Below, piece after piece: positions 1 through 9,498 of a DNA stretch of 12,591 nt (its first letter is position 1; the number at the start of each line of letters is the position of its first letter). The stretch is from UHGV virus genome UHGV-1346634; one strand, given 5' to 3'. The notes below the pieces were generated by a model, which saw nothing but the letters and a program-made list of their open reading frames with translations, ran no database searches and was not told the DNA's origin. A program made the translations under genes and the position numbers. The stretch is from a virus.

Positions 1-55
1 GAGCAATTGCCTTCTAAGCAATCGGTCACTGGTTCGAATCCAGTACAACGCGCCA
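1..55 (+). tRNA. 3' portion of a tRNA-Arg (anticodon UCU), truncated at the window edge
   Basis: Anticodon stem ATTGC (6-10) / GCAAT (18-22) around the 7-nt loop CTTCTAA (11-17), anticodon TCT at 13-15. T-stem ACTGG/CCAGT around the loop TTCGAAT (33-39), acceptor 3' strand, discriminator and CCA ending at 55. Position and anticodon fit the argO-type tRNA that precedes stx in Stx phages (from memory). Confidence 0.8.
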
Positions 56-1664: not shown

Positions 1665-1900
1665 CTCACAATTCAGTCAGTTGAAGGTTGTCTTCCCGAC
1701 TGAGAATTTGTTAAAAAATTTCTGCATGGTGAATCCCCCTGTGCGGAGGGGCGGCTGGTGTACGGTATGGTCTCTGATGATCGTTAGCGAGAATGACGCG
1801 GGTTCGGTGGCACCGGGCTGAACTCACCGGGAGGCACCCGGCATCATGCAATGAACGGTACATAGCGCTACTCCAGCCCCTCTCCGGAGGGGCTTTCTTA
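1665..1900 (+). repeat. Copy B of the diverged ~230-bp direct repeat
   Basis: Same conserved blocks as copy A in the same order with a divergent middle. Hairpin 1 at about 1735-1751, hairpin 2 at 1875-1894. Confidence 0.7.
1875..1900 (+). terminator. Intrinsic terminator at the 3' end of repeat copy B
   Basis: Same 8-bp stem AGCCCCTC / GAGGGGCT with loop TCCG as copy A, followed by TTTCTTAT. Confidence 0.55.
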
Positions 1901-1904
1901 TGGA

Positions 1905-1931
1905 TAAAAAAGCCCGCAACAATGTGCGGGC
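1905..1931 (-). terminator. Terminator-like hairpin oriented for the minus strand
   Basis: 7-bp stem GCCCGCA / TGCGGGC with a 6-nt loop, preceded on the + strand by AAAAAA (1905-1910), so the U-tract lies on the minus strand. No minus-strand gene is evident upstream of it. Confidence 0.35.
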
Positions 1932-7777: not shown

Positions 7778-8247
7778 GTATAAACCGAATGCTTTCCGCG
7801 TTTACCGTTATTCTGCTGGTGGTCTGTGGTGCGCTTAGTCTGGGGCTGAATCATTACCGCGATAACGCCATCACCTACAAAGCGCAGCGAGATAAAAAAG
7901 CCAGAGAGCTGGAGCTGGCAAACGCAACCATTACTGATATGCAGGTGCGCCAGCGCGATGTTGCTGCGCTCGATGCAAAATACTCGAGGGAATTAGCCGA
8001 TGCGAGAGCTGAAAATGAAACTCTTCGCGCTGACGTTGCCGCTGGTCGTAAGCGCCTGCGGCTCAACGCCACCTGCCCCGGTACCGTGCGTGAAGCCACC
8101 GGCACCTCCGGCGTGGATAATGCAACCGGCCCCCGACTGGCAGACACCGCTGAACGGGATTATTTCATCCTCAGAGAACGGTTGATGACAATGCAGAAGC
8201 AGCTGGAAGGGGCGCAGGAATATATCCGCACTCAGTGTATTAACTAG
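7774..8247 (+). CDS. Rz: Rz i-spanin
   Basis: Strong match to lambda Rz from memory ([62 protein letters not shown]). The track ORF from 7681 begins with TTG and over-extends; the likely start is GTG 7774 ([10 protein letters not shown]...) or ATG 7789. Confidence 0.85.
8000..8185 (+). CDS. Rz1: Rz1 o-spanin lipoprotein, embedded in the +1 frame of Rz
   Basis: 61 aa. Lipobox LVVSAC and the proline-rich motif [27 protein letters not shown], matching lambda Rz1 from memory. Fully nested inside Rz. Confidence 0.85.
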
Positions 8248-8270
8248 TATTTTTGTTATCCGGAGAATGC

Positions 8271-8495
8271 ATGAAGAAATTACTGGTAACCGTAAAGCCT
8301 TTTCAGGGAACAATTCCGTTCCGTATTTTGCAGCGTGGTCGTGTTCTTGTTGAAGGTTCGTTCAGTGGTAAATGTACGCAATTACACTCCCGGACCTTTC
8401 AGGTGAATGCCACGAATGAAGAGCTAACCGTTGAGTGTACGATGAATGCCGCTAAATGCCGCATGGTATCCGCTGCATTACAGCCAGTGTGTTGA
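8271..8495 (+). CDS. Hypothetical 74-aa protein with four Cys
   Basis: ATG at 8271 preceded by GGAGA. The track ORF from 8253 begins with TTG. No recognisable family. Confidence 0.45.
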   Translation: MKKLLVTVKPFQGTIPFRILQRGRVLVEGSFSGKCTQLHSRTFQVNATNEELTVECTMNAAKCRMVSAALQPVC

Positions 8496-8802
8496 GCGAC
8501 CTTATTATCCATGCGCGGTATTGTCGCCGTATTCCTGCATTAACAGAGACCGCAGCCCGACAGGGAGACTCCTCTGCGCGAGTGTGCGGGGATAATCAAA
8601 AACGATACACACCGGGGTTTACCGCGTTAACGGAGCGCGGAGTTGTCCCCTCATGGTCGCTGCTCCGGTGCGATGGTGGAAGAAACCGGACGATGTGTTA
8701 CCTCGCAAGCTCTGTTATGTCATGTGTCTGATTTGTGATTTAAGTCGGATAATTGTCGTTGCCATTAAGCAGAGGATTGATGACCGACAGGGTGGCATTG
8801 TT

Positions 8803-8819
8803 AGAATAAGACTTATTCT
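8803..8819. promoter_or_regulatory. Perfect inverted repeat AGAATAAG-A-CTTATTCT upstream of the lipoprotein gene; possible operator overlapping a -10-like TAGAAT
   Basis: 8-bp arms with a 1-nt spacer, 15 nt before the first ATG of the lipoprotein. A possible -35 TTGATG at 8777-8782 lies 19 nt upstream of TAGAAT (8802-8807), which is a long spacer. Confidence 0.3.
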
Positions 8820-8833
8820 TATCTGTGCCGGGA

Positions 8834-9166
8834 ATGAAAATGAAAAGAAATCTTCCGTTAATTATTTTGTTGTCTTCTCTGGTTATGGGCTGTACGCAAC
8901 ATAAAACAGATATGCCCCGACAGTTGGTTAAGGCATTACCACAATATCCGGCCTATGCAGTGGCAAATTATATAAAGGGACGGGTTGATGTGAAGTTTGA
9001 TATTGGTGCTGATGGTACTGTCACCCGAATTGAGTTTATCCGTTCAGAGCCGCACCATCTGTTTGATGAGCAGGTTGTAAAGGCGATGGCAAAATGGCGA
9101 TTTGAGAAGGACAGGCCGCGTAAAGGCGTGAAGAAAACGTTTATCTTTAGTCCTTCTGCACCCTGA
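8834..9166 (+). CDS. Lipoprotein consisting of a TonB C-terminal-like domain
   Basis: Signal peptide with lipobox (MKMKRNLPLIILLSSLVMGC). The mature part aligns by eye to the E. coli TonB C-terminal domain: PQYPAYAVANYIKGRVDVKFDIGADGTVTRIEFIRSEP..FDEQVVKAMAKWRFE against TonB [53 protein letters not shown]. Alternative starts at 8825 (GTG) and 8840 (ATG). Confidence 0.7.
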   Translation: MKMKRNLPLIILLSSLVMGCTQHKTDMPRQLVKALPQYPAYAVANYIKGRVDVKFDIGADGTVTRIEFIRSEPHHLFDEQVVKAMAKWRFEKDRPRKGVKKTFIFSPSAP

Positions 9167-9297
9167 TTATTTCATCAGAAATTAATTATCACTCTGTTGT
9201 TATTCTGTACATCCCGGCTGGGTAAGTCTTGTTCCACCGGGTATGAAGATGAAATATTGTTGGAGGACAGTGGGTACCTGCTCCTGTAACCGAACGT

Positions 9298-9498
9298 TCA
9301 TTTCTCGTTATTTGTCATGCTGGCCGGACGCAGATGCGTTGCATCTGTTGCCAGCCTTCTCCTGCAGGCTTCAATAACCCACGCTGAAAAGTTACCGGAC
9401 CCTTTATGCTCAAGGGCTATGTTGATTTGTTCAATTATGTGATTGGGGAAACGGATATTGCGGGTTGTGGTTCTGCGGGTCCGGTTTTTCGATGACAT
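9298..9498 (-). CDS. Small DNA-binding protein, ribbon-helix-helix (Arc-like); possibly YlcI/YnfO family
   Basis: 66 aa on the minus strand with RBS AAGGA about 8 nt before the ATG. The segment NIRFPNHIIEQINIALEHKGSGNFSAWVIEACRRRL resembles the Arc beta-strand plus helices pattern. Position upstream of the terminase genes matches where ylcI/ynfO sit in K-12 cryptic prophages (from memory). Confidence 0.5.
   Translation of the reverse strand: MSSKNRTRRTTTRNIRFPNHIIEQINIALEHKGSGNFSAWVIEACRRRLATDATHLRPASMTNNEK

Follow-up and report, generated by a model that had tools for sequence, protein, structure and literature searches.

Prophages of the Enterobacterales carry a family of lipoproteins built on a TonB C-terminal domain, possible competitors for TonB boxes at the outer membrane

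The virus genome UHGV-1346634 contributed 12,591 nt of viral DNA, called the window here when the whole stretch is meant, which is the late region of a Stx-type lambdoid prophage. On its + strand lies a gene for a small lipoprotein whose mature part is a TonB C-terminal domain. The gene belongs to an Enterobacterales-wide prophage family of TonB-C-terminal-domain lipoproteins, newly recognised here. TonB powers iron uptake and docks on receptors by its C-terminal end; TonB-dependent transporters are the entry route for siderophore iron, vitamin B12 and many phages, colicins, microcins and siderophore-antibiotics such as cefiderocol, and we tentatively read the protein as an un-energised, outer-membrane-tethered competitor for TonB boxes, a reading to which we give a little less than an even chance. 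The argument starts from direct observations, namely the identity and fold of the domain, a conserved lipobox, the cassette nature of the gene, its position, the purifying selection acting on it and the Fur-box sequences of its relatives.

RESULTS

A lipoprotein signal joined to a TonB C-terminal domain

The open reading frame (ORF) ends at 9166 and has three in-frame starts, GTG 8825, ATG 8834 and ATG 8840. The last of these corresponds to the RefSeq start at the 99.6%-identical locus of E. coli FHI_NMBU_10 and is preceded by GGGA 8 nt upstream, and the coding sequence (CDS) was therefore taken as 8840-9166. The initial annotation had given the gene as 8777-9166; its end was right, while its start took in the promoter region. 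The parts of the gene are as follows.

8840..9166, + strand: TonB-C-terminal-domain lipoprotein CDS, 108 aa, stop included (ORF; RefSeq start; Pfam, NCBIfam and PDB matches; dN/dS)
8828..8831, + strand: Shine-Dalgarno-like GGGA, 8 nt before ATG 8840 (sequence reading; an equivalent ribosome-binding site is annotated in the phage 21 allele)
8840..8893, + strand: predicted lipoprotein signal peptide MKRNLPLIILLSSLVMGC (sequence reading; Cys18 codon 8891-8893, Thr at +2)
8915..9151, + strand: TonB C-terminal domain, residues 26-104, equivalent to E. coli TonB 153-231 (gapless HMMER alignment; AlphaFold2; Foldseek)

The signal begins with a KR n-region, continues with a hydrophobic core and closes with the lipobox V-M-G-C, which satisfies the pattern [LVI][ASTVIM][GAS]C as read from the sequence. 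The lipobox Cys18 is the only Cys of the window protein and is invariant in 13 relatives with identities down to 34%. Across the family the residue at +2 is Thr, Ser, Ala or Val and never Asp; lipoproteins without Asp at +2 are sorted to the outer membrane, and by this rule the window protein would be lipidated and sorted there. A spacer of about 7-8 residues separates Cys18 from the start of the domain. The lipobox is unusual in one group of IMG/VR prophage contigs (L016-L021), which have S-L-N-A-C with Asn at -2. Within the CDS, a strong sigma-70-like match on the - strand (8994-8967; TTCACA, 16 nt, TATAAT, 11/12) may be a chance occurrence or an antisense promoter.

The domain was recognised by Pfam TonB_C (PF03544; 54.9 bits against a cutoff of 24.6, E 1.2e-14) and by TIGR01352 (54.7 bits against 27.1), so that a TonB_C profile match, proposed as a check when the gene was first noted, is significant. 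The earlier alignment by eye of the mature protein to E. coli TonB also held: with HMMER, residues 26-104 align without gaps to TonB 153-231 (PDB 1u07, 2gsk and 2grx) at E ~1e-16, with 31/79 residues identical (39%). The best NCBIfam scores came from the C-terminal ends of enterobacterial TonB equivalog models, of which only positions ~152-240 are matched; the top model (PRK10819 type) gave 73.6 bits against a cutoff of 315, the cutoffs of such models being 265-448. No counterpart of the TonB N-terminal anchor or proline-rich spacer is present in the 108-aa protein. Because the equivalog scores are far below their cutoffs and the anchor and rod are absent, the protein is a TonB C-terminal domain and not a TonB. 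The VMGC signal and the TonB_C match thus bear out the initial description of a lipoprotein signal fused to this domain, with neither membrane anchor nor proline-rich linker.

An AlphaFold2 model built from a 23-sequence alignment reached a predicted local distance difference test score (pLDDT) of 86.9 overall and >95 in the domain core; a shallow 6-sequence alignment gave a pLDDT of only 56. In Foldseek comparisons the model matched 1u07, 2gsk and 2grx with root-mean-square deviations (rmsd) of 1.0-1.4 A and target-normalised TM-scores of 0.88-0.92. It superposes best on TonB in the transporter-bound conformation, that is on chain 2gsk_B of the BtuB:TonB complex (rmsd 1.0 A over 79 columns, target-normalised TM-score 0.92) and on chain 2grx_C of the FhuA complex (rmsd 1.2 A). 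A search of the viral structures in BFVD with the model gave no significant match. Window residues Y36-P37 are the YP motif, Y163-P164 in TonB, and the core residues Y163, P164, G174, F180/Y, G186, P198, F202, W213, Y215/F and F230 (TonB numbering) are retained family-wide.

An Enterobacterales-wide family under purifying selection

An exhaustive HMMER search found further proteins of the same design, 107-133 aa long and 32-49% identical. By name their sources are Salmonella enterica (>1,000 contigs), the Klebsiella pneumoniae complex, Gibbsiella, Rahnella, Erwinia and Pantoea; a scan of genome contigs yielded four useful loci, with Raoultella, Shimwellia and Erwinia among those recovered. All of these wider-family members are named merely 'TonB family protein'. 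In a neighbour-joining tree of the domain the short lipoproteins cluster apart from true TonBs, and they share the motifs YPxYAxAN, SEPxHLFD and KWRFE..KP, which are missing from TonB. One further protein, P0164 (152 aa), combines a lipoprotein-type signal (LAGC) and a linker of ~50 residues with a TonB C-terminal domain that groups with the true TonBs, and could be a case in which a lipoprotein signal was joined to a TonB domain independently.

All prophage loci inspected have the gene on the late strand, with holin-endolysin-Rz just before it and the terminase genes after it, and this position is kept though the flanking modules vary among the E. coli, Salmonella, Klebsiella and other prophage loci.

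The window's own allele (type A) is common. A 701-bp stretch is found at 98-99.6% identity in phage JLK-2012, Lys8385Vzw and four Stx1a-converting phages, and in 414/5,426 complete E. coli genomes (~8%, same identity range), with record names such as 'TonB family protein', 'putative tonB-like membrane from phage origin' and 'protein TonB'. A second allele (type B), 70% identical, is carried by phages 21, Perceval, ev017, PhiR47_2, PhiR57_1 and PhiR63_2; it is named 'TonB C-terminal domain protein' in phage 21 (locus L065, record positions 21967-25416), 'TonB fragment' in Perceval and 'partial tonB-like ... CP-933N' in ev017. The gene is thus not new as a sequence, being already annotated in phage 21, Perceval, JLK-2012 and CP-933N and as PHROG 1267. 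Full-text literature searches found no functional study of the gene or the family, so that the initial impression of a phage protein of undescribed design holds for its function and fails for the gene itself.

Between the window and the phage 21/Perceval alleles dN/dS is 0.13 (dS 1.5, dN 0.19). The gene is under purifying selection, which contradicts the 'fragment' label. Many public type-B alleles have frameshifted or truncated C-termini (P0010, P0012, P0013, P0015, P0018, P0019, P0021, P0024 and P0030), some of these clusters holding tens to >100 members, which points either to recurrent decay in cryptic prophages or to a mutational hotspot near codon 90.

Each of the six distinct type-B carriers in the phage collection, as listed above, also has sitABCD, which encodes a TonB-independent iron/manganese importer. 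About 20 other sit-carrying E. coli phage records are without the TonB-domain gene, type-A carriers are without sit, and the type-B carriers are close kin, so the co-occurrence is a hint only. Perceval also encodes an NmpC porin.

Canonical Fur boxes in several lineages

Two features lie immediately upstream of the gene.

8780..8807, + strand: promoter-like site, -35 ATGACC (8780-8785), 16-nt spacer, extended -10 TGtTAGAAT (8799-8807); 9/12 matches plus TG
8803..8819, no strand: exact 8-1-8 palindrome AGAATAAG-A-CTTATTCT, overlapping the -10; candidate operator

The -10 hexamer TAGAAT, at 8802-8807, carries the TG extension. The promoter scan as a whole found 2 sites against 2.2 expected in shuffled sequence, and is therefore weak evidence by itself; promoter activity of the 8780-8807 site is predicted from its sequence, and a TGTTAGnAT element is found again in the corresponding position before the Salmonella allele. 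The palindrome over the -10-like hexamer, remarked on in the initial annotation, is indeed exact. In the phage 21/Perceval allele a 13-nt deletion removes its right arm.

Fur sites were searched for with the 19-bp consensus and with the 7-1-7 consensus TGATAATnATTATCA. In the Salmonella lineage (L007-L014) and in L015 the sequence TGATAAT-T/C-ATTATCA matches the latter at 14/14 positions. The third lineage (L016-L021) has TGAAAATCATTATCA (13/14), ~45-75 bp ahead of where the protein match starts, and Raoultella ornithinolytica (L059) has TGAGAATTATTATCA (13/14). Canonical Fur boxes are thus present in at least three lineages (L007-L015, L016-L021 and L059); matches in the Klebsiella/R. planticola lineage are weaker (12/14 or 14/19). 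For nearly all of the strong boxes, no other site on either strand of the locus (4.9-12 kb) matches as well. The boxes lie ~30-75 bp from the start codon or the start of the protein match, and overlap or just follow an extended -10 TGTTAGTAT. From these sequences iron/Fur control appears likely for the family at large.

The palindrome of the window occupies the position of these canonical boxes, but its half-sites differ. It is a different palindrome at the Fur-box position, and whether its regulator is Fur is uncertain. Elsewhere, AGAAATTAATTATCA at 9177-9191 on the + strand, 11 nt past the stop codon, matches the 7-1-7 consensus at 11/14, which is at chance level (0.36 expected). Candidates for a Fur box in the window itself came only to 13/19 at the palindrome and to this chance-level 11/14, and for that reason Fur control is not claimed for the window allele.

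Expression in the lysogen, suggested when the gene was first noted, finds indirect support in the 70%-identical Perceval allele, which in E. coli LF82 is transcribed at log2 5.0-6.6 in all conditions, above the flanking Rz and terminase genes of Perceval at log2 2.3-4.3 (PMC9928086, supplementary tables). These transcriptome tables were the only experimental data on the gene that the literature searches brought up.

A discrete cassette in the late region

The gene order in the window begins with a DNA methyltransferase, a SASA/NanS-like esterase, a holin, a DUF1327 protein, an endolysin and an antirepressor, continues with Rz, the embedded Rz1, a truncated remnant (8253-8495) and the TonB-domain lipoprotein, and ends with ylcI on the opposite strand followed by an HNH endonuclease, TerS and TerL. 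The lipoprotein gene begins 590 bp past Rz. The relevant features are as follows.

7780-8247, + strand: Rz (phrog_13, 1e-74)
8015-8185, + strand: Rz1, embedded in Rz (phrog_3198, 3e-27)
8691..9343, no strand: accessory-gene (moron) cassette, missing from otherwise collinear phages

Phages 2851 and PPyecE_EH1910 align to the window over 8510/8215-8690 and resume at 9344/9364, lacking the stretch between, and many other Stx phages are likewise collinear on both flanks and without 8691-9343. Because collinear phages lack it, the gene is a discrete cassette; with a promoter-like site of its own and a homologue transcribed in a lysogen, it is a prophage moron.

Several other features of the window were noted. 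The 80-aa ORF at 8253-8495 (+) matches only positions 98-172 of the 291-position profile phrog_2571 (8e-29); lying between Rz and the cassette, it resembles a truncated piece of a once longer gene. Two full-length copies of the small RNA STnc100 (Rfam RF02076) lie at 1212-1417 and 1695-1905 (+), between the methyltransferase and esterase genes, and score 139.7 and 167.2 bits (gathering score 47). A tandem heptamer, GCTGGTC x 7.9 (97% match), occupies 1084-1138, just past the methyltransferase ORF. The window edge cuts through a tRNA gene, whose 3' end occupies 1-52 (+) (38 bits to Rfam tRNA, model positions 21-71); ARAGORN found no complete tRNA in the window, and related phages have a tRNA cluster after Q.

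DISCUSSION

A competitor for TonB boxes

According to our proposal, the lipid anchor and a linker of ~8 residues would keep a whole TonB C-terminal domain directly beneath the TonB-dependent transporters. Because the membrane anchor and proline-rich spacer of TonB are lacking, such a protein could not be energised by ExbB/ExbD. It would be a dead-end competitor, its beta-3 edge strand pairing with TonB boxes in transporters and in those colicins that have one, and the outcome would be less TonB-dependent entry of phages, group B colicins and siderophore-microcins, together with some loss of siderophore iron uptake. In the several lineages in which the promoter carries a canonical Fur box, the protein would on that account be made at low iron, when the receptors are derepressed.

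The proposal gains support from three sides. Exported periplasmic pieces of TonB reportedly inhibit iron import via TonB-dependent transporters (Howard et al. 2001, as cited in PMC9841981), the transporter-bound conformation of TonB is the one that the model resembles most, and canonical Fur boxes lie upstream of several relatives. There is also a precedent for action from the periplasmic side in the phage outer-membrane lipoproteins Llp and Cor, which inactivate FhuA from there (bioRxiv 10.64898/2026.03.26.714494). TonB-box binding, any exclusion phenotype, Fur control and the lipidation and sorting of the protein are all inferences. A broader form of the proposal, in which a Fur-switched outer-membrane TonB decoy protects lysogens of E. 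coli, Salmonella, Klebsiella and related bacteria broadly under iron limitation and is sometimes paired with SitABCD, strikes us as possible without being probable. Its protection would span TonB-dependent phages, group B colicins and siderophore-microcins, and in phage 21 and Perceval the pairing with SitABCD may offset the cost in iron uptake.

A number of observations weigh against competition for TonB boxes or against its iron switch. The TonB residues R158, Q160 and R166, which we take from suppressor genetics and the 2gsk and 2grx structures to be transporter contacts, are replaced in every family member (R166 by Tyr in all, Q160 by L, Y, H, T or R), and V226 of the beta-3 strand is Lys or Arg in most; since these positions are altered, the partner is possibly not a standard TonB box. 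The window has no 7-1-7 Fur match upstream of the gene, and the score of its palindrome against the 19-bp consensus is equalled at six other places in the window. The phage 21/Perceval allele has no Fur box, and the Perceval allele was unchanged in macrophages, with bor strongly up (PMC9928086); such constitutive, macrophage-insensitive transcription fits the loss of the palindrome's right arm. To block TonB at the very time when iron runs short should come at a high cost. Finally, the defence models of PADLOC-DB 2.0 gave no match at E <= 0.1.

Alternative explanations

The replaced contacts also speak for an alternative that we regard as unlikely, though still to be taken seriously, in which an iron- or host-cue-regulated outer-membrane lipoprotein uses the TonB C-terminal fold for another partner. 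The host TonB C-terminal domain (as a heterodimer), ExbD, peptidoglycan or a host factor are candidates, and the role would be the tuning of envelope or iron physiology, or that of a Bor-like fitness or virulence moron, not the blocking of TonB boxes. Beyond the systematic replacement of R158, Q160 and R166, the conserved motifs YPxYAxAN and SEPxHLFD and the K at TonB position 226 suggest an altered specificity, and in the domain tree the family is a clade distinct from true TonBs. Phage 21 and Perceval have bor at the locus too, the six distinct type-B carriers all have sitABCD, and a Fur box would equally be a cue for being inside a host. No result, however, points to an alternative partner; the model is nearest to transporter-bound TonB, and the short tether would keep the domain beside the outer membrane, well away from ExbD and the inner membrane.

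Competition for TonB boxes has also to be set against a role like that of Llp and Cor, in which a late or lysogen-made protein inactivates the TonB-dependent receptor of its own carrier phage and so prevents self-superinfection and the loss of progeny on cell debris. The location of the gene directly downstream of the late operon, in the same orientation, in every locus examined would suit this, as would the fact that Llp and Cor are themselves small outer-membrane lipoproteins with such a role. We consider it improbable. Structural and packaging modules vary among the carriers, which include lambda-like phage 21, HK97-like Stx phages and prophages of Salmonella and Klebsiella; one shared receptor looks unlikely, and the fold is unrelated to Llp and Cor, neither of which has a homologue among the PHROG, Pfam or PDB matches of the window protein. 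TonB docking is not known to change the external loops that phages bind.

Two further explanations have very little probability left to them. The window protein matches PHROG 1267 at 4e-42 over the full profile length, and since this PHROG is labelled 'Rz-like spanin' in the lysis category, a lipoprotein gene beside the lysis cassette could be taken for a lysis accessory or an outer-membrane spanin subunit. The window, however, already has an Rz/Rz1 pair; in phage 21 the i-spanin and o-spanin are annotated separately, with bor between the spanins and the TonB-domain gene; the protein is a globular alpha/beta domain, not proline-rich, with the lipidated Cys as its only one; and the Perceval allele is transcribed in lysogens. 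The spanin reading was rejected on the separate Rz/Rz1 pair and the globular fold, and PHROG 1267 is this TonB-domain lipoprotein family under a wrong label, one that will spread into automated phage annotation. The names 'TonB fragment' and 'partial tonB-like', like the defective type-B variants (P0010, P0012, P0013, P0018, P0024 and P0030), might suggest a captured tonB 3' end that is decaying and no longer functional. For intact alleles this reading is contradicted by the dN/dS of 0.13 and by family-wide conservation, the lipobox and fold residues being invariant across genera at 32-45% identity, the promoter and position conserved, the AlphaFold2 model confident and the gene transcribed.

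If competition for TonB boxes is what the protein does, it would jam the shared TonB-box step as the first inhibitor of the Ton system found in nature, and would be a single-gene, broad-spectrum exclusion and immunity factor that ~8% of complete E. coli genomes carry and that is frequent in Salmonella and Klebsiella. Phage-therapy host range, colicin and microcin competition in the inflamed gut and possibly susceptibility to siderophore-drugs could then be affected. Should the decoy be wrong, a conserved, Fur-linked TonB-domain lipoprotein of the outer membrane would still point to a new partner of the fold.

Comparison with known systems

With the TonB C-terminal domain of E. coli and Salmonella (1u07, 2gsk, 2grx and 8rd6) the window protein has the fold in common and 39% identity across 79 residues aligned without gaps; it keeps the YP motif and, in the core, the aromatic residues F180, F202, W213 and F230, and its domain boundaries are those of the crystallised 90-residue fragment. 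It differs from TonB in having no anchor or proline-rich rod and no ExbB/ExbD link, in its predicted lipid anchorage at the opposite membrane, in the replacement of R158, Q160 and R166, in a shorter tail past F230 and in being encoded by a phage. Engineered TonB fragments (Howard, Herrmann, Stratilo and Braun 2001, J Bacteriol 183:5885, as cited in PMC9841981) are likewise periplasmic and cut from the energy source; they are artificial, soluble and overproduced pieces of host TonB, whereas the window protein is natural, diverged and, by prediction, lipid-tethered and expressed from its own promoter.

HasB, FusB and Vibrio TonB2 are also diverged TonB C-terminal domains with altered partner specificity, but they keep the inner-membrane anchor and are energised, which the window protein cannot be. 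Lambda Bor (and Iss), which is linked to serum resistance, is likewise an outer-membrane lipoprotein moron that occupies this site past Rz/Rz1 and is expressed in lysogens; its sequence is unrelated and its orientation opposite, and phage 21 and Perceval have it alongside the TonB-domain gene.

Llp of T5 and Cor of phi80, N15, HK022 and mEp167 are small phage outer-membrane lipoproteins that exclude phages via FhuA from the periplasmic side. They are unrelated in fold and sequence and hit one receptor allosterically, whereas a mimic of the TonB C-terminal domain would be expected to act at the shared TonB-box step. What is added here to the existing annotations is the breadth of the family, its conserved position, its purifying selection and the canonical Fur boxes of several lineages, and the gene is best filed as a TonB-domain family variant with a presumed functional analogy to Llp and Cor.

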